From the NCBI GenBank assembly GCA_030390025.1, contig CM059431.1:148802001-148866000 (forward strand): 64,000 bases of DNA, given 5' to 3'. Below, one piece after another: positions 42,753-62,104 of the stretch. The notes below the pieces were generated by a model. It was not told the origin of the DNA. It worked only from the letters and a program-made list of their open reading frames with translations, and searched no databases. Made by a program: the position numbers and the translations under genes. The stretch's first letter is position 1; every line of letters starts with the position of its first letter. This stretch comes from Squalus acanthias. Taxonomy: Eukaryota.

Positions 42753-45700
42753 ATCATAGAATCATAGAAGATAGGAGCAGGAGTAGGCCATTCCGCCCCT
42801 CTATCCTGCTCCGCCATTCAATGCGATCATGGCTGATCATCCAAATTCAGTACCCTGTTCCTGCTTTCTCCCCATATCCCTTGATCCCTTTAGCCTTAAG
42901 AAATATATCCAACTCATTCTTGAATCTATTGCATGAATTGGCCTCGAGTGCCTTCTGTGGCAGAGAATTCAACAGCTTCACCACTCTCTGGGTGAAGAAA
43001 TTCCTCCTCAATTCTGTCCTAAATGGCTTAGCCCTTATCCTGAGACTGTGACCCCTGGTTCTTGACTCCCCGACCATCGGGAACATCCTTCCTGCATCTA
43101 GTTTGTCCTGTCCTGTCAGAATTTTATAAGTTTCAATGAGATCCCCTCTCATTCTTCTGAACTCCAGCGGGTATAAGCCCAATCGACCCAATCTCTCCTC
43201 ATACGTCATTCCTGCCATCCCAGGTATCAGCCTTCTGAATCTTCGCTGAACTCCTTCCATGGCAAGAACATCCTTCCTCAGATAAGGCGACCAAAATTGC
43301 ACACAGTACTCAAGGTGTGGTCTCACCAAGGCCCTGTACAACTGCAGCAAGACATCCTTGTTCCTGTACTCAAACCCTCTCGCTATGAAGGCCAACATAC
43401 CATTTGCCTTCTTAACCGCATGCTGCACCTGCATGCTTACATTCAGCGACTGGTGCACAAGGACACCCAGGTCTCGTTGCATTTCCCCTTCTCCCAATCT
43501 ATTGCAATTCAGATACAAATCTACTTTCTGTTTTTGACACCAAAGTTGATAACCTCGCATTTATCCACGTTATATTGCATCTGCCACGTTTCTGCCCAAT
43601 CACCCAACCTGTCATCCTGGAGTTTCTCGGCATCTTCCTCGCAGCACACACGCCTACCCAGTTTTATATCATCTGCAAACTTGGAGAAATTACATCTAGT
43701 TCCCTTGTCTAGATCATTAATATATATTGTGAATAGCTGGTGTCCAAAGACCGATCCCTGCGGTACCCCACTAGTCACTGCCTGCCACTCGGAAAAAGAC
43801 CCGTTTATACCAACACTTTGCTTTCTGTCTGCCAACCAGTTCACTATCCAAGTCAATAACTTGCCCCCAATCCCATGTGCCTTAACTCTACACGCTAATC
43901 TCTTATGCGGGACCTTATCCAAAGCCTTTTGGAATTCCAAATACACCACATCCACTGGTTCTCCCTTATCTATTTTACCAGTTACATCCTCAAAAAATTC
44001 CAGTAGATTATTCAAGCATGATTTACCTTTCGTAAATCCATGTTGACTTTGTCCGATCCTGTCACTGTTTTCCAAGTGCTCAGCTATTACATCTTTTATA
44101 ATGGACTCTAGCATGTTCCCCACTACCGATGTCAGGCTTACCGGTCTGTAATTATCCGTTTTCTCTCTACCACCCTTTTTGAATAGTGGGATAACATTAG
44201 CTACCCTCCAATCCATGGGTAGTGTTTTAGATTCCATCGAATGTTGGAAGATGATCAGCAATGCATCTACTATTTCTAGGGCCACTTCCTTTAGTACCTA
44301 GGATATAGATTATCAGGCCCTGGGGACTTATCGGCCTTCAATCCCTTCAATTTCCCTAACGCCATTTCCCTACAAATACTGATTTATTTCAGTTCCTCTC
44401 TTTGATCAGACCCTATGTTCTCCAACATCTCTGGGAGATTACTTGTATCCTCCTTTGTGAAGCCAGAACCAAAATATGCATTTAATTGGTCTGACATTTC
44501 TTTGTTCCCCATTATAAGTTCCCCTGATTCTGACTGCAAGGGACCTATGCTTGATTTCACTAATCTTTTTCTTCTGTTCACATTTATATAAAAGCTTTCA
44601 CAGTCAGTTTTTAAATTCACCGCCAGCTTACTCTCGTATTCTATTTTCCCCTTCTTAATTAATCCCTTTGTCCTCCTTTGTTCAATCTTAAACTGCTCCC
44701 AATTCTCAGGGTTTCTGCTTTTTCTGGACAATTTATATGCGCTCTCCTTGGATCTTATGCTATCCCTAATTTCCCTTGTTAGCCAAGGTTGAGTCACACT
44801 TTTTGTTTTATTCTTATGCCAAACCGAGATGAACAAATTCTGTAGTTCGTCCATGTGTTCTTTGATGGTTTGCCATTGCCTATCCACCGTCAACCCTTTG
44901 AGTGGCATTCCCTAATCAATCGTACCAAACTCGCACCTCATACCATCGTAGTTTCCTTTATTTATATTCAGGACCCAAGTCTCTGAGTCGACTACTTCAC
45001 TCTCCATCCTAATGAAGTATTGTATCATATTATGATCGCTCCGACCCAAGGGGCCTCGCACAACAAGATTGCTAATTAATCCTTTTTCATTACATAATAC
45101 CCAGTCTAAGATGGCCTGATCTCTGGTTGGTTCCTCGGCATATTGTTCCAGGAAACCATCCCGTAAACACTCCAGGAATTCGTCCTCCATAGTAGTGTTA
45201 CCAATTTGGTTAGCCCAATCTATATGTAGATTAAAGTCACCCATGATGGCTGCTGTGCCCTTATTGCACGCTTCTCTAATTTCCCTTTTAATCCCATCCC
45301 CAAACTCTGCATTACTATTTGGAGGTCGACGTATCACTCCCACTAACGTTTTCTGCCCCTTGTTATTTCTCAGTTCAAATCATACAGAATCCACATCATC
45401 AGAGCTAATATCCTTCCTTTCAATTTTGTTAATCCCCTCTTTAACCAGCAAAGCTACCGCGCCTCCCTTCCTTTTTGCCTATCTTTCCTGAATATTGAGT
45501 GCCCCTGGATGTTGAGTTCCCAGCCCTGGCCACCCTGGAGCCATGTTTCGGTTATTCCAATCAAATTATATTCGTTTACCTCTATTTGCGCAGCTAATTC
45601 ATCCACCATGATCCCAATGCTCCTTGCATTAAGACACAAAGCCTGCAGGCTTGTTTTTTTTACCGCTCTTAGACCTATTAGAATTAGTATTTACTGTGGC

Positions 45701-47020
45701 CATGTTTGATTTAAAGCAATGTTTTCTCTGACTGCCACTTTTGTTTTTCTCCTTCCTCTCTTTTGCTTTTATCCTTGTTTCCCTTTCCTCTGTCTCCCTG
45801 CTCAGGTTCCCAACCCCCTGCCATTTCAGTTTAAACCCCCCCCCCCCCCCCCCCAGAGCACTAGCAAACACTCCCCCTAGGACATCGGTCCCGGCCCTGA
45901 CCAGGTGTAGACTGTCCGGTTTGTACTGGTCCCACCTCCCACATAACCGGTTCCAATGCCCCAGGAATTTGAATCCCTCCCCCTTGCACCATTCCTCTAG
46001 CCACGTATTCATTTGAAATATCCTTCTATTTCTACTCTGACTAGCACGTGGAACTGGTAGCAATCCTGAGATTACTACCTTTGAGGTCCTATTTTTAATT
46101 TACCTCCTAACACCCTATATTCTGCTTTTAGTACCTCATCCCGTTGTTTTACCTATATCGTTGGTACCTATATGCACCATAGCAACTGGCTGTTCACCCT
46201 CCCTTTCCGAAATGCTCTGTAGCCGCTCTGAGACATCCTTGACCCTTGCACCAGGGAGGCAACATACCATCCTGGTGTCTCGTTTGCGGCCGCAGAAACG
46301 CCTATCTATTCCCCTTACAATAGAATCCCCTATCTCTATAGCTGGCCCACACTTTTTCCTCCCATCCTGTGCAGCAGAACCACCTACGGTGCAAGGAAGT
46401 TGGCTGCTGCTGTCTTCCCCTGATAAGCCATCTCCCTCAACAATATCCAAAGCAATATATCTGTTTGGGAGGGGGATGGCCACAGGAGACCCCTGCACTG
46501 CCTGCCTGCGCCTATTACTCTGCCTGGTGGTCACCCATTCCCATCCTGCCTGTACACCATTTACCTGCGGTGTGACCAACTCCCTAAACGTGCTATCCAC
46601 GATGTGCTCAGAATCGCGAATGCTCCAATATGCATCCATTCGCAGCTCCAGCGCCGCAATGCGGTCTGTCAGTAGCTGCAGCTGGAAAAACCTCCTGCAC
46701 ACATGGTTGTCAGGGACACAGGAAGTGTCCCTGATTTCTCACATAGTGCAGGAAGAGCATGTCACAGCACCGAGCTCACCTGCCATGACTTATCCTTTAA
46801 TTAATTAATTAAAATTAAATTAAAATTAAATGGATGCCACCAATTACACTAGAATTAAGTGATATACTCAAATGCCCTTGCTTAACAGTAGTCCCCGCTA
46901 CACAAAGAGACCGTAGAAACCACAACATTAAAGTTTAGAAAAATTGAGAAAGAAAACACTCACCAACCAATCACTTACCTGCTTTTTGGTGCTATCACAC
47001 TACAAATACTATTTGCATAC
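42753..47020 (-). mobile_element. Near full-length degenerate CR1 LINE; extreme 5' end probably displaced to 56129-56153 by the LTR element
   Basis: ORF1 (CRRFFQLQLL, IGDSIVRG, HIGTND) at ~45850-46787; APE-RT fragments at 42847-45640; (TTCTATGA) tail. Confidence 0.92.
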
Positions 47021-48625
47021 TGTAGAGTTTCGCAATTATCGCGATTCTAATAATATGAGAGAAGCAGGTTCAATTGATCATTTTTATTGAACGGAATGCT
47101 GTCTTGAAAATAAAGGGTACAGAAGCCTGTAAAATGGCCGCCGCGCATCATGGCAGAAGCTTCCAGTGACACAGTGGGCAGACAAGATGGCGTCGAATAT
47201 ACATTCAGTATGAGATCATACCTGGTACAAATTAAAAAGGCAGGATGCAACCCGTTTGCATTTTTGGACAATAGCAATGATATAAGTGCTTGAATCGTTT
47301 CATATGCACAGTAAGAATCATTGAACTGGGCCATCGAAAGCCTATCCAGACACATCAATACACAAATACCCCCCGGCTCAACAATGAGAGAGACATTGGC
47401 GGGTGATTAAGCCAGTATTCAGGGGGTCCCAAAACCAGTTGAGGAGACGATTCATACACATCCTGGCTGACTCAACAATGAAGAAGGCATTAACGGATAG
47501 TTGGCTAGTTTCAGGTGATACCGAAACCCGTTAAGAAGATAATAGCCCCATGCTGGGAGTTTTGGGCGCCAAAATCACACAAAGGATAACATTTAGATTT
47601 GAGCGGGAGATAAGGCCGACAAAACTGTATAACTATAGGGGACAAATGTCCATCGGGCTCTTGGCTCTTGACTCTTCGCTCTTGTCGTGTGCTGGTTTCT
47701 TCGGCGGGGCTGCGCTGGTCGGTTATTCGAGTGTTGGGTGGAGTTCAATCGGAACGAGCCACCTCGACACGTCGGTAAACGGTGTCCAGACCCATCAGGG
47801 CAACACAGCGGTGTGTTCCCGAGTGAGGCCCGAGTGACGAGAAGAAAGACGAGAAGAAAGACGAGAAGAAATTCCACGTACCGCCACAGTCAGTAAACCC
47901 CGACCGCGCCCGAAGATAAACGGCAGAGTCCACCAGTTCGAATTCTACAGACTACTTCATGACCCGGTTTGAATTCCACAAACTACTTCATGACATCAGG
48001 GAGTCTGGCTTACCCTCCGGCTCTTTGAGCGGATAGCCTGAGCCATCCGCGATGAACTTTACCGGGGCCGTCTCGAGTGGACCCATTCGCGGGAGCGAGA
48101 GTTAACAAGTCGGGTGCAGAAACACTTACAGCCACGTGACAGTCAGGTGCTGCAGCGAAACGAGCTGAGAGCCTCATTTAAATTTCCGAAGTGAGCCGAG
48201 TGGTGAGCATGTATCCCGATCCTACAAATCCAGACGTAGTTTAGGTATATTAAGGGAGGGTGGTTTCTAAGATTAATGTATAATGTGTTCCCCCTTTTAC
48301 GATGTGTCATGTGTTCCCCATTTCCATAGACCAAGTTTTATAAACGTTTGTATACTGATAATCTCTTTGATCTGCGCCTATGACATGTATTTCATGATTT
48401 TAGACGCCATGCAATAAAGACATTCATTTCGTGCTATTCAACCAAGTCAATTTGAGTCTTTCTCTGCATCACTGCTCCTTGCATCTCAGTCCAGGTGTCA
48501 GAACCGTAAGGGCGAGTGGGTCGAACCACTCACAGGTTCTTATTGCAAAGGTCTGGCCGGAGACCAGAGCAAGCAATAGTACAGGCAACGAAAGCCTCAC
48601 CTCGCACCAGTCCGTGACCCTTACA
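47021..48625 (+). repeat. 5' LTR (1605 bp)
   Basis: TGTAGAG...CCTTACA; TATA-like TATATTAA at ~48246; AATAAA at 48413; internal (GACGAGAAGAAA)x3. Confidence 0.95.
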
Positions 48626-48629
48626 GAAA

Positions 48630-48647
48630 TGGCGACCGCGGCAGGAC
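48630..48647 (+). other. Primer binding site, tRNA-Arg(TCG)-type
   Basis: TGGCGACCGCGGCAGGAC 4 nt after the LTR; complementary to the vertebrate tRNA-Arg-TCG 3' end as recalled (GTCCTGCCGCGGTCG-CCA). Confidence 0.85.
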
Positions 48648-48700
48648 CCTGGCAGCAAGAGAGTAATGTCTTAGACCCAGGTTTGAATAAACGAAATGTA

Positions 48701-50428
48701 ATGGACGAAAAAGTAGCCGACTATGTTTTCGGGAATGTAACCCTGACCAAACAGTGGATATGTGACCTACTGACGGATAGGCGTCCGCTAGACGCAGCCA
48801 TCAGGTGGACAGGTAGCAGAGAATATAAGAAGTCAGTAGAGAAATCGGTCTGGTTGATGTGCTACAAAGAGCAAGTCCAACTTTCGGACCAGGTCATTGC
48901 AGCACAGACAGCTCAGATCAAAGAGTTAGACACAGAGATGGAGGAAAAGGTTATGGGAGGACAGAAACTGATTGCATCACTGAATGCGTTGCATCAGGAA
49001 CGCCAAATAGTAGCCAGCCACCACGAGGCTAGGATCGATTACTTAGACTGCCAGGTCACGGAAGCTAAGTTAAGTGAGGGAAAGATTAAAGAACGGTGTA
49101 TCCGCCTAGCTAACCAGATAAAGACCCAGGAAGAAAGTCTCAGGGGAGTTAGGGCGGCATACAAGATGGCTCTCGAGGATAGATCTGAGTGAGCCGACCA
49201 CAGCGTTTGCCAGAGAGAGATAGAGGACCTGAGAGAGGCCCTGAATAAGGCGAACGGCTTGGTGTGTTTCATCAGCCCGTCAGCGAGCCAGCCACAGGTA
49301 GCTAGGGAATTCCCAAAACCACTGCCAAGAAAAGCAGGTGTGGTACCAACCACCAAGCCCTCAGCGCCACCCAGCTATACGGAAACCTGGGTGAGGGAGG
49401 AAGCGGTAGAAATTGAGAAGGATGTTCCCGAGGTAGAACAAACCCCGGAGGTAGTGTCGAACGCGGCACCGATGTGTCCGGTCCGAGAACAAAAGCGGGG
49501 CCCGAACGGGGCAGATGGGGAAGACGGGACCCTTTTAAACCAACTTGTAGTGCCCCACAGCTCACAACAGCTGAGGGCAATGATCAGCCATGTCCGGAAA
49601 CTGTCAGAGTCAGGAGATCCTTCCGTTCATTTTAGAGAGGTAGAACAGACCGCAGCGATTAATGGCTGCGACGGGGAGGAAAAGACCAGAATGTTGCTGT
49701 TCTCTTTGGATAGCTCAATCCTTTAGTGTCTCTCCGACGAGAGCAAGAGGGGAGTTAGGGGCTATGAGGATTTACGGGACGAGGTCCTGGAAGTGTTGGG
49801 AGTGGATGACGAAGGTCCGTTTGTCAGACTGGGTCAGACAGTACAGATGGAGGGAGAACCCCCACGAGTTTTCGCCGAAAGGCTGTGGCCAGTATATCAG
49901 CGTAGCTGCCCAAGTACACCAGCGCGTCACAACCTGCACGGTGTCGAGAAAGCTCATTGGCTCAGGTGCGTAGTCGCCAACAGCTTGCCAGCCATCAGGG
50001 AGCAAGCCAAGGCGTGGTTTGATCCCACCAACCCCAATACAACGGAGGAGTCGGTCCTGAGTCAGCTCACCATAGGACATAGAAATACTAGAAGCACGGG
50101 AGCGCGTCCCCTTAAGAGAAAAGTGCATGAAGCAAAGCCCGCAGCTCCGGCTCAGAAAGAGTGGCATCAGGAGGGAAATCGCGCCCCACAAACCAATAGT
50201 GTTTGTTACGGGTGCGGGAAGGCAGGTCACTAGCGCAAAAACTGTAGGAATCCCTGGAAGGATTCCAAGGAGAAAGCTCCCGCAGTCCGAGCCCAAACGC
50301 CTGTCTCTGAGAGAGGAGCTGGTGTGCCTATCCATTACGACGCGATCGAGTCAATGTTAGGAGCCATGCGGTCTCTTATGACCTCACACGGAAAGGTAGC
50401 AACAGCCCCATACAACCCAGACTTCTGA
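48701..50428 (+). pseudogene. gag: gag-like gene (~575 aa) with 3 in-frame stops
   Basis: One frame across ORFs 48431/49259/49793; stops at 49190, 49724, 50231; N-terminal coiled coil, PSAP and PPSY late-domain-like motifs, capsid-like region, CYGCGKAGH*RKNC knuckle (50204-50245). Confidence 0.85.
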
Positions 50429-51469
50429 TTGGAACCGGCGCAGCCTGCCTACCTGTGTCCCCTTGAAAGACACGCACAGGAACAGACCTCCTGTAAGGAG
50501 GCCAGGTTAAATGAGCAGGCCTTACGGGAGGAGAACGCTCGCTTAATGGGGAAAATAGACGGGCTAGAAGGGCAGCTTAGAGACATAAAGGCAGCCTACA
50601 GGGTAGCCAGGAGCAGGGAGTATGAGGATTTAAACCATGGGCCCTGTGAGGAAAGTATAAAATGTCTGACCCAAGCCCTATCCAAAGCCAGAGGGATGGT
50701 TTGCTCAACAACCCCGGGGGAATTCAACACCCCGCAGTTGCAAGCCATGGTAGCAGAGTTGCCCAAACTAAAACAGAATAGAAATCTTCAGCCTCCAGCA
50801 GGCGATATTACACAGAATGCACAAGCAGGGGCGGTGGCCTGTCTTAGGGGAGGGGCCAGACCTGCGAGTGGGGACTCTCAGCCCCGGGTAGAACCGCAGG
50901 TCACGCAGGCCGGTAAAGCAGCCTGCGTGAGGGGAGAAGACATTCTGCAAAAGTGGAGGGTCTCTCCTTTTTCTTGGGATTCGGATGAGGAAGGGCCCGG
51001 AGGGCTCGACCAAGTTTGTGACCCGGTCGGAGAGGTGGTGGGGTCGGAGGACGGAGGTTCCACCCTCGACCCGAGCATAGGGGAGGTAGGGATTACGGGT
51101 GGAGATTCACCTACTGTTGAAACAAGTAGGGTGGAGTCGGAAACCGCAGATCCCGAGCCCAGGGGGGTGGAGCCAGGGGATACAGAACCGGCGGCTGTGG
51201 TGGGACCACAGGCGGTGACGGTGGAAGTCCCGGTCCCCGGTCCGTCGGCCCTGGAGGCCTTGCCCAAGGTGGCCCTCCGCAGGTCGAGTCGGACACCCCA
51301 GCACAGGAAGTTGTGGTCAGATCCCTCGTACACCCCCAGGTATAAGTCCAAGGCAGCCCAGGGAGGTCCCAGTTCCCGATCGGCAGCGACAGGCTGCGGC
51401 GGATCAAAGACAAGGGTCAGTGTCCCCCCGCCACGGGGAACAGCTCGCGGCAGCCTTCTCAGGAGTTAG
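50429..51469 (+). CDS. Open 346-codon ORF in frame after the gag stop; contains a diverged Gag coiled-coil copy and a low-complexity tail
   Basis: LRDIKAAYRVA...HGPCEESIKCLTQALSKARGMVC aligns with gag LRGVRAAYKMA...HSVCQREIEDLREALNKANGLVC; LRRSSRTPQ near the end; no PR, RT, RNase H or IN core motifs. Confidence 0.6.
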   Translation: MEPAQPAYLCPLERHAQEQTSCKEARLNEQALREENARLMGKIDGLEGQLRDIKAAYRVARSREYEDLNHGPCEESIKCLTQALSKARGMVCSTTPGEFNTPQLQAMVAELPKLKQNRNLQPPAGDITQNAQAGAVACLRGGARPASGDSQPRVEPQVTQAGKAACVRGEDILQKWRVSPFSWDSDEEGPGGLDQVCDPVGEVVGSEDGGSTLDPSIGEVGITGGDSPTVETSRVESETADPEPRGVEPGDTEPAAVVGPQAVTVEVPVPGPSALEALPKVALRRSSRTPQHRKLWSDPSYTPRYKSKAAQGGPSSRSAATGCGGSKTRVSVPPPRGTARGSLLRS

Positions 51470-51739
51470 CTAGGCCGCCCTGGGAACGGGCGGCGCTGTA
51501 CAGTAATTTTAGGAGGATAAGTTTAGGTATAGTGTTTTAATATCAGGTTGAGATTGTAGATTAATTTCATAAGTAAATGGTAAAATGATGGGAGTTAGTG
51601 ATAGGAATAGTTAAGGTCTATCCAGTATGCATGTCTTGTACGTGAGACGAGGTCAAGGGACCCGCTCACTCTTCACAAAAGCCAGAGACTGTTGGGAGGC
51701 TGGCTACATCATTTTATCTGATCACAGGAACCAGGAGAT

Positions 51740-54050
51740 ATGAATTGGATTCTTGTGGTGCTCGCGACGATCGGATATGGATTGGCCTATCGGGGCCTCA
51801 CCAAGAATGTCGTTGTGTTCGGTTGCTCCGGGGACACGGCCCCCATCACGACGGATGGGACCGGGAAGCGAGAGGCTGAGGAAAGCGCCACTTATTTCCA
51901 CAATGGAAGGTGGCCGGGATGGCTGGGAACGAATTCAACGGAATACTCCAGCGCATCCGGGTTTGCGTACAAAGAGACTTCTTTACTGTGTCCCAGGGTG
52001 AGGATCGTTGCAGCCAGAATCAGCGTCACCGTTGGCAAAAGGATTTGTTTGGTGTGCATTTTAAACGTCACATTGAGCCGATGGTGGTGGTTACGGAAGT
52101 TAAGCAAGACTATGAGAAATTCCTCGGACGAGTGGGAGCGATTGGGTAACAATACCCATCGGACAATTACGGGGACTAACGGACAAGTGAGAGTCTGTTG
52201 GGACAAATGGTGGGAACCGGATGAGGGAATATATGTTTGTATGTGGGGATCTACGTACGTTTGCCCCAAGGGTATATCCATATTTTTCCTACAACAGTGG
52301 CAGGATGCCGGGAAAGGGATGAGGTGGGACGTCAGCACCCGGGGGTGCGGAGCTCCACTCTCCCCGATCCCGGTAAACGCCACTGAACTCATCACGCGCC
52401 CACGCAAGTCCCCGCCCACGATTCCGGTGGCATTGGCTCAGGAGGAAGGGTGCCCTAAAACCACTAAGGGGCCCGGGAATGGTCTGTTACTGGTGCCAAC
52501 AGATCAGATACTGTATCAGGGGGTACATTACGCGGTGGCCTCGGTGATTCTAAATCTCACCGAGGTGCATTTGCCAGAATGGTGCCCCAAAGAAACGGAA
52601 AAATTGTACCAGGTCCTGTTAACAAACATGTTCAGGCAGTTTTATGAGTTCGATTTTGCAGAGGTTGACAAAACAAGCTAATACACCACACCACACGAAG
52701 TTTTGGGTCAGGTGGGGAGACAAAGAAGGGGTGCTGTGAACGATGTGTTCACTGCTTTTAATACGGGAACATCTGTGGTCAACGCTCTAGATAATGTAGA
52801 GCTGCAGACACAGATCAACGGTTTAAAGACACAGTTAAAGAGCATCGTCACAAATGAGAATAAAGTAGCAGGGTCTGAGTTACATAAGGACCAGGCCATG
52901 ACACTACACTTAAAAGAGATTATAGCAGAGCTGGAGAATCATGTGAGAACGGTAAATGCCCTGATCAGGGAAGATCGAAATGCATCCGATCAAGCTGCGC
53001 AGAACGAGGTGTGCGTGTTATACGGGTGTGGTTACTGGGCGAAGGCCGCAGTAATTTGGAGGATTTAAAACAAGGTTTGGTCCCGTCCTGGATAAGCAAC
53101 AAACACCTGCAGGCGCTACACCCTTTTCAGAACCCATTAAGCCCGTGCCAGCTCAGGCTAGCCTCAGAGGCATACCCAGTCCCAGTGGACTGCGGACACT
53201 CAAATCACACTATCATGGGTATAGTGGTACGGATGCCGGTGTTGGGCAACACAGCAAAGCCCGCCCCGGTGTACAGGGTGGAGAACATTGGACTCATTCA
53301 GGGGGGAGCCCACATTCGCTACGCAGCGGTCCCACCTTACGTCATCCGCTGGGAGCAAACGATGACAGGTACCGACCTCTCAGGTTGTCATAGCAGGGGA
53401 GCACACCTCATACTTGGTCCCCAGCACTTGAATGCCTTTTTAATACCACAATGCGGGTTCAGAACGGCTGGGGCGAAGCCCATGAATTGCACCATGGAAG
53501 CAATGACACAAGATCATGTGCCCCCACAGGTGGCATACATAGGGGGTGGAACGTATTGCGTTACCACTGCAGCGCAACACTACCAGCATGGACAGAACAG
53601 TCGGTGTCCGGTGAGTGACAGCAGTTTCTGTTTTAAACCCAGGGCTGAAGTTCAAGTGGCACAACAGCGAATTGTCCCAATTCCTGCACCCTCCACGGTT
53701 CACCTCACTGTTAAAGAGAATTTCACAGACTTGCAGCGATTCGTCGCGCATTTCGCGTACATCATTCCCCCTCTCCCTGAACACCTCACCAAGATTTTAA
53801 AAGCCGTCATGGTATCACAGAAACATTTTTACACCCTGGAACAGAAGACTCTAGAGATAGGGGCAGAGATATTGGACATAGTAACCCCACCGTGGTGGGA
53901 TCTGTTCACTAATATTGAAGTCCCGTAAGGATCAGGATAGCCTCCCACATTTTGGTAGTATGTCAAGTTGTAATTGTAGTGTACCTGTTGTTCGTGCACT
54001 GCAAAAGGGGCAAACGCCTCACGAGGCAGGAGAACACAGCGGAGTGGTAA
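51740..54050 (+). pseudogene. env: env-like glycoprotein (~770 aa): signal peptide, Ig-like domain, furin site, fusion peptide, heptad repeat, Cys-rich region, TM
   Basis: MNWILVVLATIGYGLA; RQRR|GAVNDVFTAFNTGTSVVNALD (52718-52729); TM IASHILVVCQVVIVVYLLFVHC then KRGKR; lesions: TAA at 52679, frameshifts at ~53024 and ~53928. Confidence 0.85.
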
Positions 54051-54477
54051 GAACGTTACGTGCGCGTGAACGAGGAAACTACTGCGTAAGCTGCCAGGAT
54101 AGTGCCCCTCCATTTTACCGTGTGTGTGTTGTAATTGTTGTAGTTATAAGCTTTTGTGGCTAAGTTTTTGGAACTGTTGTATTTTTAAAACAGTCGGTTT
54201 AATTGTTTTTCTTTTGTAATAAAACATGCATGTACAGGTAGTGCAAGAGGCATCGGCCTTTTGCACCTGGAAGGCGAATACGCAGTGTAAGTTAAAGGCA
54301 ATGCTGTCTATGATTGTCCAAGATAAACACAGTGTGATTTTTCTGGGAAATGAGGACTACATGTGTCGTGGGGGCCATAGATAGATTAATTACCGGGAAC
54401 GTTTGGATGTGGAGAATCGGGATAATTTTAATCAAAAGCATTTAATTGATATGATAAGCGGAGTTATTCGCATCAAC

Positions 54478-54486
54478 AGGAGGGAC
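54478..54486 (+). other. Polypurine tract
   Basis: AGGAGGGAC immediately before the 3' LTR. Confidence 0.65.
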
Positions 54487-56128
54487 TGTAGAGTTTCGCA
54501 ATTATCGCGATTCTAATAATATGAGAGAAGCAGGTTCAATTGATCATTTTTATTGAACGGAATGCTGTCTTGAAAATAAAGGGTACAGAAGCCTGCAAAA
54601 TGGCCGCCGCGCATCGTGGCAGAAGCTTCCAGAGACACAGTGGGCAGACAAGATGGCGTCGAATATACATTCAGTATGAGATCATACCTGGTACAAATTG
54701 AAAAGGCAGGATGCAACCCGTTTGCATTTTTGGACAATAGCAATGATATAAGTGCTTGAATCGTTTCATACGCACAGTAAGAATCATTGCACTGGGCCAT
54801 CGAAAGCCCATCCAGACACATCATTACACAAATACCCCCCCGGATCAACAATGAGAGAGACATTGGCGGGTGATTAAGCCAGTATTCAGGGGGTCCCAAA
54901 ACCAGTTGAGGAGACGATTCATACACATCCTGGCTGGCTCAACAATGAAGAAGGCATTAACGGATAGTTGGCCAGTTTCAGGTGATACCGAAACCCATTA
55001 AGAAGATAATCGCCCCATGCTGGGAGTTTTGGGCGCCAAAATCACACAAAGGATAACATTTAGATTTGAGCGGGAGATAAGGCCGACAAAACTGTATAAC
55101 TATAGGGGACAAATGTCCATCGGGCTCTTGGCTCTTGACTCTTCGCTCTTCGCTCTTGTCGTGTGCTGGTTTCTTCGGCGGGGCTGCGCTGGTCGGTATT
55201 CGAGTGTTGGGTGGATTTCAATCGGAACGAGCCACCTCGACATGGCAGGCAGCAGGGTACACCATCCCGATCGTCGGTAAACGGTGTCCGGACCCATCAG
55301 GGCAACACAGCGGTGTGTTCCCGAGCGAGGCCCGAGTGACGAGAAGAAAGACGAGAAGAAAGACGAGAAGAAATTCCACGTGCCGCCACGGTCAGTAAAC
55401 CCCGACCGCGCCCGAAGATAAACGGCAGAGTCCACCAGTTCGAATTCTACAGACTACTTCATGACCAGGTTTGAATTCCACAAACTAATTCATGACATCA
55501 GGGAGTTTGGCTTACCCTCCGGCTCTTTGAGCGGATAGCCTGAGCCATCCGCGACGAACTTTACCGGGGCCGTCTCGAGTGGACCCATTCGCGGCAGCGA
55601 GAGTAAACAAGTCGGGTGCAGAAACCCTTACAGCCACGTGACAGACAGGCGCTGCAGCGAAACGATCTGAGAGCCTCATTTTAAATTTCCGAAGTGAGCT
55701 GAGTGGTGAGCATGTTTCCCGATAATACAAATCCAGACGTAGTTTAGGTATATTAAGGGAGGGTGGTTTCTAAGGTTAATGTATAATGTGTTCACCCTTT
55801 TACGATGTGTCGTGTGTTCCCCATTTCCATAGACCAAGTTTAATAAATGTGTGTATACTGCTACTCTCTTTGATCTGCGCCTATGACATGTATTTCATGA
55901 TTTTAGACGCCATGCAATAAAGACATTCATTTCGTGCTATTCAACCAGGTCTATTTGAGTCGTTCTCTACATCACTGCTCCTTGCATCTAAGTGCAGATG
56001 TCAGAACCGTAATGGCGAGTGGGTCGAACCACTCACAGGTGCTTATTGCAAAAGTCTGTACGAAGACCAGAGCAAGAAATAGTAGAGGCATCGAAAGCCT
56101 CAGCTCGCACCAGTCCGTGACCCTTACA
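54487..56128 (+). repeat. 3' LTR (1642 bp)
   Basis: Colinear with the 5' LTR, a few percent substitutions by eye, plus a 7-bp duplication (~55144) and a ~30-bp extra segment (~55243-55271). Confidence 0.95.
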
Positions 56129-59512: not shown

Positions 59513-60414
59513 TCATCCTTTAATGAATTTTACAATCAGAGTAAACGGATATTTCCCCACATTCTTCAACTGCTCTCTGAACTTAGTCTGGGTCACCGCG
59601 TAAATTCCAGTGTTTGTGCAGCAACTCAGCAGCTGCAGCATCAATCCAAATTCCTGTAAATAAAGAGGTGGACTTGCAGACCGAAACTCCACATACCACA
59701 TCCGGTTCCATATAGCAGACTCCATAAACGCTGCCCATAACAGGATGAAATTGCCCGAGATAACAAGAAGTAAAATGATGGATTTCCTGCGGCTCTCCAT
59801 CTCTGGGTCTCTGGGACACTCCCCACTGCTGGGACCCCGGAGTCTCCTGCGGGCTCTGCTGGCCACTAAAATGTGTCTGACGGTGACAGCATTGAGCAGC
59901 AGAATCACAAATAATGGGACCCCCGGGGTGAGAATATAATGAAGGAACTCGATTGTTCCCCAGACCCTTGACATCCAAAAATTGATTGTTACATAACAAA
60001 ACCAGGGGATGTTCTGAAGCTGATACCGATCTGTGAACATAAAATACCAGAAAATGTTCTTTGAACGGCTCAGCACAGTCACTGTTCCCAGAGCCACAGC
60101 CGCCGTTTTCTCCGTGCAATATTTAGTTTTCAGCTTCTGGCGACAAATGGCCAAAAATCGATCAAAGGTGAAAGTGACGGTGAACCAGACAGAACAATCT
60201 GCGGCTGCATAAAGCAGGACGGCATGGATATTACACACGGGGAGTGACAGTAAGAAAATAAATTGTTCCATATAAACAATTGGAATCTGCTTCAATATCA
60301 GGTCGAGGATAACGACCAGTAGATCCGCCGCTGCCATGGCCACCAGGTAGCGAGTGACACATTTGGAGAGACCGCACTTTCCCCGAGACAGGATCACAAT
60401 CGTCACTAAGTTCA
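59513..60414 (-). CDS. GPR139-like GPCR terminal coding exon, copy B
   Basis: Open frame; acceptor AG at 60416-60415; about 20 aa differences from copy A over ~300 aa. Confidence 0.88.
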
Positions 60415-62104
60415 CTGTGTGGAAGGGAAATAAACAGGGTAATTTTACATCAGGCTGGGAGGGGAAATAAACACGGAAATTATACATCAGGCTGGGAGAA
60501 AGAACAGCATTTTGATAGAATTCGGGGAGAAATCTGCAACTCATTAGCGACATTCAATGATATAATCTAATTCTATTACCTGTGGAGCTGAATACAGGAT
60601 TTATTGTAAGAATAATCGGGAATAGATTGTGGAATTCATAAATGAAACGGGGATAAATATAAGATGAAAGTAACAGATGTTTGAACAATGAGAGATTAAC
60701 TGATAGATCTGCCTTTATCCCAGCAGACAAAAGCACACCTCGACGTACCAGAGACACAAAGGACCAGAATCTTTCAGGAAGCCTTCGTGTCCCGGGATCA
60801 GTCAGCATTTGGAGCGGTGCAATTCGCTTCTGTGCTCTTGTGTTAGGGATGGGAAATTCCCGCTTTGATTACTGCTCCTGGTTAGAATAGTCATTATATT
60901 TAGAACTGAAAATGAATGCAACGGCAAAAAACAAACAGCGTGCAATAATTACTGGCAATTGTATTTAAAATGTACGGCTGTAATATGCAAATGTTAGATA
61001 ATAAATACAAGTGCACTGCAGTTATAAAGATAACTGGGCTGTAAGAAGTGATTTGAAGTTTTTAGTTTTCTACAGTTTTGTTGAAATACACAAATTGTGG
61101 CTCATTGAAAGGAAGATTTTCCAAATAACATTGCAAAGAATGGATTCTGAAATAAAATAAATAGTTATCCTTGACCAGGCAATATTCCACTAAATACACT
61201 TTTTAGGTTAATAATCAAGCGACTTATCCCACAGGCAACGAGCCGGCGAACGCTTTTGTAAAGTAACTGAACACAAATGGAAGAGATTTATCCTGTTGGT
61301 TTCCAATTTGTGCAGAGAATAGTAGTGGAGAAAATACGAAAGGATTTTCTTATCCTCAGTACTGCAGTTACAATCAGCTGGGATTGTTTATCGTGCAGTA
61401 CAGCAGGAGACAATAGAGCATGACTCTGCGTCTCACTGAGAGATCCACTGAACTGTGACAGACGGGCATGGACTCCAATTGTAAATTCAAAACAAAGATT
61501 GGAAATAAACGCATTGAAATATGGCTGACTGAACACTTTTTGAGATCTAAATTATCCTTGTAAACCTTTTCTAACCTTCAGAAGCAGTGCCACTGATGCA
61601 GAACTGGCGATGGTGGGGAAGGAGACACTGACTGGAACTGAATGATTAGCGGATATTTCAGACATTTAAAGATGTGGATGCGATCTGCCAGGATTTGTTC
61701 CTGTGACTCTGTGTCAGTAACCATACCGAGCATTCGGTGAAAACAAAATCAAATTACTGCGGATGCTGCAAAATCTGAAATAGGAACTGAAAGTGCTTTA
61801 AATGCTCAGCAGGTCAGGCAACATCTGTGGAGAGAGAGAGAGAGTTAACGTTACATGTCGATGACCTTTAGCCATGAGGTGAAAAGTCTCCTCAACCAAG
61901 AAAACGTCCTTCTGATTTGTTACAATGTGCAGTGCAGATAGCGAAACGAAATTCCTTAAGCATAGAGAGTCGTCCAATATCTTTTCTTGAGTTGAATATA
62001 AAACAATTGAATCTTGGTAAAACTGTATCAGCTTCAGAATCAATAGCTGACAGAAGAACGGATGGGATGGGGAATGATAAGGAGGGAAATACAGTTAAAC
62101 ATGA

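Follow-up and report, generated by a model that had tools for sequence, protein, structure and literature searches.

A conserved, probably immunoglobulin-type domain ahead of a predicted F-type fusogen in the Env of a Squalus acanthias retrovirus family

The env gene and its element

We analysed a stretch of 64,000 nt from Squalus acanthias contig CM059431.1, hereafter the window, the numbering of which is used throughout. It contains a long terminal repeat (LTR) retrovirus, whose env gene opens with an open reading frame (ORF) at 51740-52681 on the forward strand that encodes 313 aa; Env residues are counted from its start. In this Env and its relatives, a conserved domain that is probably of immunoglobulin (Ig) type stands on a proline-rich hinge before a predicted F-type class I fusogen. 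The element is laid out as follows.

47021..48625, +: 5' LTR, TGT...ACA, 1605 nt, with the target-site duplication ATAC just upstream at 47017-47020
48630..48647, +: primer-binding site, complementary to the 3' end of host tRNA-Arg(TCG)
48629..50428, +: gag, with in-frame stops in this copy and open in sister copies; N-terminal coiled coil, CCHC-type box near the end
50429..51469, +: ORF2, in the place of pol and in frame after the gag stop; second Gag coiled coil and C-terminal Pol tail
51740..51787, +: Env signal peptide, residues 1-16, read off the sequence
51788..51991, +: conserved N-terminal segment, residues 17-84, with Cys29 and Cys84; lends a beta-sandwich strand in both models
51992..52294, +: probable Ig-type domain, residues 85-185, with Cys106, Trp115-117 and DEGIYVC 161-167, plus Cys103, Cys153 and Cys175
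52349..52450, +: Pro/Ser/Thr-rich hinge, residues 204-237
52451..52717, +: F2-like first fusogen part, starting at Cys238; premature stop in the window copy at 52679-52681
52718..52789, +: furin-type site RQRR (residues 327-330) and putative, moderately hydrophobic fusion peptide
52790..54089, +: F1-like part with heptad helices, Cys-rich beta region, stem, transmembrane helix and tail
54477..54486, +: polypurine tract
54487..56128, +: 3' LTR, TGT...ACA, 1642 nt, followed by ATAC

The window element is a dead, pol-less LTR retrovirus copy with no sign of host use. Its LTRs differ by a Kimura two-parameter distance of 0.036 (57 differences over 1604 aligned sites), and env, which ends about 400 nt before the 3' LTR, is further broken by frameshifts near 53024 and near 53927; nothing functional is possible in this copy beyond Env residue 313. 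The gag frame and the primer-binding site overlap, the first ATG of the former running into the start of the latter (48629-48647). The tRNA-Arg(TCG) pattern was matched exactly 424 times in the genome, against 0 for the control, and ARAGORN called tRNA-Arg(tcg) at 3 of 3 loci. Hundreds of such matches are arranged in tandem at C26:38.99-42.2 Mb, repeating about every 1.62 kb, and both loci scanned in these arrays also contain tRNA-Ser(GCT).

When the genome was searched with the window ORF, the best 127 of 7495 candidates were scored, at 89-100% identity. All 127 of these best-scoring copies cover the Ig region, 33 of them in a stop-free frame of 789 codons. The family is thus abundant, with at least 127 relatives in the genome, and some of these carry pol, which lies between gag and env in 3 of 14 other copies with upstream DNA (L033, L036, L037). 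The Pol of L033 contains protease, reverse transcriptase (RT), two RNase H-type domains and integrase. A complete family Env, taken from a natural copy, is 783 aa long and runs from the signal peptide through a 68-residue segment, the Ig-like domain, the hinge, the F2-like part, RQRR, the fusion peptide and the F1-like part to the transmembrane helix. Its nearest named relatives come from a skate, a sawshark and the whale shark.

The N-terminal domain and the fusogen core

A sequence-only reading had placed an Ig-like domain at 51992-52279, which corresponds to residues 85-180 of ORF 51740-52681, and the landmarks that it named are all in place: ISVTVGKRICLVC terminates at Cys106, WWW occupies residues 115-117 and DEGIYVC residues 161-167, with a spacing of 61 residues between Cys106 and Cys167. 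Ig V/I-set domains typically have a Cys on strand B, a Trp on strand C about 10 residues later and D-x-G-x-Y-x-C on strand F, with some 55-75 residues between the two cysteines, and the window domain displays this Cys-Trp-Cys signature. The pattern C-x(8,16)-W-x(35,60)-D-x-[GA]-x-Y-x-C, a regular expression composed after the sequence was seen, occurred in only 5 of 20,000 shuffles of the ORF. Among the 30 best-scoring copies, C103, W115-117, C153, Y165, C167 and C175 are kept in 30/30, and C106, D161 and G163 in 29/30. The domain holds further cysteines at 103, 153 and 175 and two conserved sequons at 127 and 137, is flanked by cysteines at 29, 84 and 203, and is preceded by a segment of about 68 residues (17-84). 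The proline-rich hinge that had been read ahead of the fusogen was likewise recovered, at residues 204-237 with 7 Pro and 5 Ser/Thr, and the fusogen core follows from Cys238.

The domain is under purifying selection between subfamilies, with the proportion of non-synonymous differences (pN) at 0.15-0.26 and that of synonymous differences (pS) at 0.70-0.90 over four pairs, indicating that it was maintained during virus replication. Between subfamilies, identity is 60-76% in the Ig region, 62-76% in the F2 part and 42-51% in the hinge region. Within 30 close copies, chosen by protein score (a choice that itself depresses pN), the pN/pS of shared variants was 0.30 for the Ig region, where 11 of them are non-synonymous and 10 synonymous, and 0.05 for the F2 part; single-copy variants gave 0.51 and 0.36, respectively. 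We additionally noted that two Envs of the skate Rhinoraja longicauda (P0003, P0007) have an Ig domain 71-73% identical to that of the window, compared with 53-63% for sister subfamilies in the same genome, which hints at old viral lineages or at transmission between species.

Several searches point to the Ig superfamily (IgSF). All 15 matches of the window domain to PDB sequences at E<=10 are V-type Ig chains, the best being CRTAM (E=0.075), and a profile of 17 domain sequences matches the CRTAM V domain twice (E=5.9e-4 and 1.7e-3), the better alignment spanning 92 positions and interrupted by two small gaps; its remaining three PDB matches (E 0.25-0.7) are non-Ig. Of 50 family members, 21 have a match to Pfam Ig_3 at E<=0.1, the best at 9e-4. 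When 10 N-terminal domains, selected for their Ig-like look, were pooled into one profile, this gave 1014 PDB matches at E<=1, with IgSF chains making up 59 of the best 60. Both structural models are all-beta over the Ig region, and for the ectodomain model of a natural copy, antibody, T-cell receptor or IgSF chains account for 35 of the 50 VIA structural matches listed (Z 6.0-6.6, root-mean-square deviation 2.4-3.1 A, 77-94 residues). These lie, with few going further, on model residues 15-156, thus beginning inside the preceding segment, and the Ig domain may therefore start before residue 85.

A number of results weigh against an Ig fold. The N-terminal AlphaFold model has a mean predicted local distance difference test score (pLDDT) of 38, with no residue at >=70, and the Ig region of the ectodomain model has a pLDDT of 38-65 in 10-residue blocks. 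The Z of 6-6.6 is below the level of 8 that the tool sets for more than a common arrangement, and the N-terminal model by itself goes no higher than Z 4.5, its top match being a reovirus chain, and has no Foldseek match at E<=0.001 (best E 0.04). The Pfam check proposed by the sequence-only reading came out negative, with zero matches at E<=1 for the window ORF and domain; across the relatives, no Pfam family reached its curated cut-off (Ig_3 13.6-17 bits, cut-off 30), and a 50-sequence profile of the whole N-terminal 234 residues had 0 PDB matches at E<=1. An ESM Atlas search with the Ig-like domain returned nothing usable, and one with a frog Env a single unnamed chordate cluster at 0.84. 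As the window domain has no Pfam match, the label "Ig" rests on profiles, relatives and weak models. Taken together, the profile matches, the relatives and the structural matches make it very probable that residues 85-185 form a diverged Ig-type beta-sandwich fold, so that the claim of an Ig domain survives as a probable one; AlphaFold modelling, likewise proposed there, gave an all-beta region with Ig-chain matches but at low confidence over this region.

RQRR (327-330) is the sole R-x-[KR]-R furin-type site of the ectodomain of the 783-aa Env, and after it come the putative fusion peptide, heptad helices, Cys-rich beta region and transmembrane helix. Foldseek matched the ectodomain model to paramyxovirus and pneumovirus F proteins in the PDB (237 matches at E<=0.001; best human parainfluenza virus 3 F, E=1.5e-11), and further structural matches include foamy virus Env (8rm0, Z 9.7) and Newcastle disease virus F (Z 10.8). 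Foamy Env was also the top PDB match of the Env sequence profile (E=0.0024), and in BFVD the model's top match was A0A384ZVF2, an unnamed viral protein of 928 aa (E=1e-15). F2, cleavage site, fusion peptide, heptad repeat, domains I and II, stem and transmembrane segment appear in the order and fold of an F protein, and the core is thus predicted, from sequence and model, to be an F-type class I fusogen that shares its fusion fold with foamy Env and with paramyxovirus and pneumovirus F. Domain II of F, which has an Ig fold, belongs to this core and is distinct from the N-terminal Ig arm. No two cysteines are adjacent in the 783-aa Env, and the test for a CX6CC, gamma-type transmembrane subunit was accordingly negative.

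Relatives of the Env and of the virus

We compared the family with snakehead retrovirus (SnRV) and with lokiretroviruses, having recognised the Pol of SnRV (P0086) and three loki-type Pols (P0085, P0087, P0101) by eye against the supplement of PMC7947760. Family RT is 45% identical to that of SnRV over 248 aa, the highest value among named viruses, and 34-37% identical to loki-type RTs. In a tree of 31 RT rows, hand-chosen from 120 and labelled with the help of source names and Pfam content, the family lay on the canonical-retrovirus side (98/97), grouped with frog and coelacanth elements (90/87), and a single clade of the family with the three loki-type RTs was rejected (approximately unbiased (AU) test, p=0.0044). 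The rows of SnRV, of this clade, of ERV-L type and of gamma/epsilon type meet in an open fork, so that the tree does not resolve the family and SnRV as sisters.

P0086 is encoded on a viral contig of 10,688 nt, the Env of which we took as the SnRV Env; it aligns with the profile of the family core along some 320 positions (E=3.7e-7). Its N-terminus matched perlecan or contactin Ig domains in five of six PDB matches (best E=0.036) and Pfam V-set at E=0.14, and its score was reached by 0 of 2000 shuffles with a host V profile and 7 of 2000 with the family profile. The SnRV Env N-terminus thus seems to resemble a short I-type Ig domain, a weak signal from an independent sequence. SnRV presumably has a primer site of tRNA-Arg type, so that the closest RT, the primer site, a homologous Env core and a weakly Ig-like N-terminus all link the family to SnRV; its homologous Env and tRNA-Arg(TCG) primer site are as in an SnRV-like element. 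The SnRV Env differs in being much longer (a frame of 1134 codons): roughly 400 additional residues, and with them several furin-type sites, separate its Ig-like stretch from its core. That stretch is short and perlecan/contactin-like, whereas the domain of the shark family is CRTAM-like. The GenBank genome of SnRV is 10,688 nt long (PMC12193657), and SnRV-like endogenous retroviruses (ERVs) have been reported in the elephant shark (PMC4422223; PMC4977317).

A lokiretrovirus identity, initially taken up on account of the F-like Env, was dropped in view of the RT identities, the AU test and the absence of an arm from the two loki Envs compared. Lokiretroviruses have an F-like Env with signal peptide, R-x-K/R-R site, fusion peptide, coiled coil and transmembrane segment and a Pol with dual RNase H (PMC7947760), traits that are present in the shark family and are shared beyond lokiretroviruses. 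In contrast, the F core of the Loki-Str and Loki-Xtr Envs follows right after the signal peptide with no Ig arm, and the RT of the shark family lies outside the loki clade. No lokiretroviruses were found in cartilaginous fish in that study (PMC7947760).

Among those of 48 relatives whose N-terminus is present, we identified four states of the arm: the domain described here (skate, sawshark, whale shark), other Ig-like heads (bamboo shark P0013, frogs P0020 and P0048, and P0040), Cys-rich heads (Mustelus P0014, sawshark P0023) and none (P0039). P0013, a bamboo-shark Env, is named "Ig-like domain-containing protein" in UniRef, and the N-terminus of P0040 matches V-set at E=0.045. The number of 500 shuffles that reached the score with the host V profile and the family profile, respectively, was 0 and 3 for P0013, 6 and 8 for P0020, 6 and 105 for P0040, 52 and 61 for P0014, 177 and 35 for P0023, 56 and 148 for P0048, and 240 and 184 for the armless control P0039. 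Only three of the six arm-bearing relatives (P0013, P0020 and P0040) therefore exceed shuffles on the host V profile.

Other results from this survey count against the reading of the arm as an ancient Ig-type attachment domain. The frog pair has no clear Ig match in the PDB (nine matches, best SAHS1) and reaches a probability of 5.7% against host V exons in hhalign. Profile-profile links of the N-terminal domain (7.7% with a second shark Env group, 0.3% with the frog pair) are too weak to show a common origin of the N-terminal domains. Moreover, P0039, which is close to P0040, and the two loki Envs pass straight from the signal peptide to the F core, indicating that such F-type Envs can exist without an arm.

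A tree of F cores, with 12 rows and without P0048, the core start of which the script did not find, placed the Cys-rich group as sister to this family (95/100) and P0039 as sister to the Ig-bearing P0040 (100/100), which suggests that P0039 lost its arm. The tree leaves its deeper forks open and puts SnRV on a long branch. The arm may stem from a single ancient capture or from repeated ones. As Ig-like N-termini occur in distant relatives including SnRV, any capture must be ancient, and the Ig arm looks like an old feature of SnRV-like Envs rather than a recent capture in sharks. Because the best single-domain match is the V domain of nectin-like CRTAM, the arm likely derives, ultimately, from a cellular adhesion-type IgSF gene. 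The capture from the host that the sequence-only reading had proposed was not borne out: no donor was found among 22 host antigen-receptor V exons or in protein searches, which gave only ERV relatives, 164 of 2000 shuffles of the window domain matched its score with the profile of those exons, and hhalign gave a probability of 1.1% for the domain against them.

We additionally made several observations on the copies and on the DNA around them. The further Env families of the genome (L046-L075, L076-L095) include at least two with 50-62% identity over the N-terminal region and the same Ig signature, and several with 25-29% identity in the core and a different Ig-like head. The gene models of Pristiophorus japonicus P0004 and P0005 join Env pieces to host Niban and zinc-finger genes, and these fusions are probably annotation artefacts or read-through transcripts. 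The ORF2 coiled coil is 37% identical to that of Gag over 73 aa, as measured in sister copies, and the possibility that ORF2 is the smc gene of lokiretroviruses was rejected because it matches the coiled coil of the element's own Gag. In the pol-less copies L031, L034, L035, L038, L042, L043 and L045, an ORF2-type frame of about 340-370 codons takes the place of pol; mostly open in many copies, it may be read through and serve particle assembly in a helper-dependent, Env-carrying sub-lineage.

L045 (C7:149836500-149846499) duplicates the window element, together with 4 kb or more of its upstream flank, in inverted orientation roughly 1 Mb away at 98.5-98.8% identity, and the pair is a segmental duplication that followed insertion. 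Five of the 14 other copies (L039, L040, L041, L043, L044) carry a DNA transposon at one site upstream of env, corresponding to window position 51529, which is 4.3 kb long in L041 and present as deleted forms of 745-912 nt in the other four. From its transposase and Myb-like ORFs we take it to be of PIF/Harbinger type, and it was apparently amplified inside the retrovirus. Elsewhere in the window lie a single-exon ORF of 346 aa that looks by eye like a rhodopsin-family G-protein-coupled receptor (59513-60553, -) and LINE-type RT fragments (42847-46639, -).

Attachment by the Ig arm and its alternatives

On the sequences and models considered here, we propose, at a probability of roughly 55%, that the Ig-type domain on its Pro-rich hinge serves as an attachment domain built into an F-type Env. 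Furin would cut at RQRR and, as this is the sole R-x-[KR]-R site of the ectodomain, the Ig arm would remain on the surface subunit. The hinge would let the arm extend from the trimer, the three Ig heads of which would bind a host cell-surface protein and anchor the particle, and this would then permit the F core to refold.

It is unlikely, though well worth weighing, that the domain is Ig-like but structural, either a cap or stabiliser of the prefusion F trimer or a glycosylated shield, with attachment by the F core as in pneumoviruses. Its slow evolution, with strong conservation and an identity close to that of the F2 part, suits a structural role as much as a conserved receptor and counts against the attachment proposal; the three extra invariant cysteines, the two sequons and the existence of P0039 without the whole arm are also consistent with a cap. 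However, the Pro-rich hinge parts the domain from the core, both models fold it as a separate unit, and relatives swap in very different Ig-like or Cys-rich domains while the core is kept, a pattern more in keeping with a binding head that can be exchanged than with a cap that is fixed. An immune mimic or decoy, copied from a CRTAM/CADM-type or other immune IgSF ligand and damping or redirecting lymphocytes while displayed on virions or infected cells, appears improbable: the best single-domain match is indeed a T-cell molecule, CRTAM, and the SnRV Env has an RQKR after its Ig-like stretch that would make release possible there, but identity to CRTAM is low and the match reaches just E=6e-4, a working mimic being expected to lie closer to its host model, the family Env has no furin-type site between the domain and the core, and host antigen-receptor V exons were unmatched. 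That the domain is instead a Cys/Trp-rich viral beta domain resembling the Ig signature by convergence is very doubtful. In its favour, strand E reads VRVCW in place of the usual L-x-I, Pfam cut-offs were unreached, models were of low confidence and the Atlas search was blank, but sequence-PDB, profile-PDB, Pfam and structure searches point to the IgSF and little else, the Cys-Trp-Cys spacing is canonical and several distant relatives have recognisable Ig motifs at the same place.

The proposed attachment arm has partial counterparts in known systems. The sequence-only reading had described its layout as not standard for a retroviral surface subunit (SU), which was an overstatement: in a gamma-type SU, an N-terminal IgV-like receptor-binding domain is followed by a proline-rich region, and in Env-Dbi a SIRP-like host IgV domain was captured by Env (Hotzel, bioRxiv 10.1101/2024.03.17.585361). 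Gammaretroviral SU thus has this layout of an IgV head and a proline-rich region already; the unusual feature here is the partner, an F-type fusogen. The shark family resembles the gamma-type RBD-C and Env-Dbi in having an N-terminal IgV-like domain, a proline-rich linker and fusion machinery in the same order. It differs in that gamma-type Envs have a gamma-type transmembrane subunit and a proximal domain, whereas its own fusogen is F-type and free of an adjacent Cys-Cys pair, and in that the Env-Dbi domain can be aligned to its host donor, whereas the Ig domain of the shark family cannot. The V-set of CRTAM and nectin-like (CADM) proteins is collinear over 92 positions, but the shark domain has low identity to it and extra cysteines.

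Among retroviruses, F-like Envs have been described before in lokiretroviruses (PMC7947760; PMC9040795) and in foamy virus (PMC11468914). The receptor-binding domain of foamy Env lies inside SU (residues 217-543; PMC11468914), whereas the shark family has an N-terminal Ig arm, and paramyxoviruses attach via a separate protein, whereas the attachment domain proposed here is built in. The openly accessible literature that we searched yielded no account of an Ig domain carried by an SnRV-like or F-type retroviral Env, and the accessible portions of PMC13524379, PMC12583693, PMC10435555 and PMC10072453 hold nothing on an Ig domain of an F-type Env. The novelty is probably an F-type Env that bears a conserved, probably Ig-type domain; the parts themselves are known.

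How F-type retroviral Envs outside foamy viruses attach is unaddressed in the literature searched, as far as its accessible text goes, and a hinged Ig head is a concrete candidate. The design of an Ig head on a proline-rich hinge would then occur on two unrelated retroviral fusogens, gamma-type and F-type. More tentatively, the SnRV-like retroviruses of sharks, skates, frogs and bony fish might represent a third entry design, in which an F-type fusogen bears an exchangeable N-terminal head taken repeatedly from host adhesion Ig genes. If so, with heads that are nectin-like here, CEACAM/SLAM-like in P0040 and perlecan/contactin-like in SnRV, these viruses would dock via the adhesion code of their hosts. 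The link to SnRV corrects the comparison with lokiretroviruses and allows the question to be put to a cultured virus instead of a genomic fossil; if this entry design is real, the still-infectious SnRV would share it.

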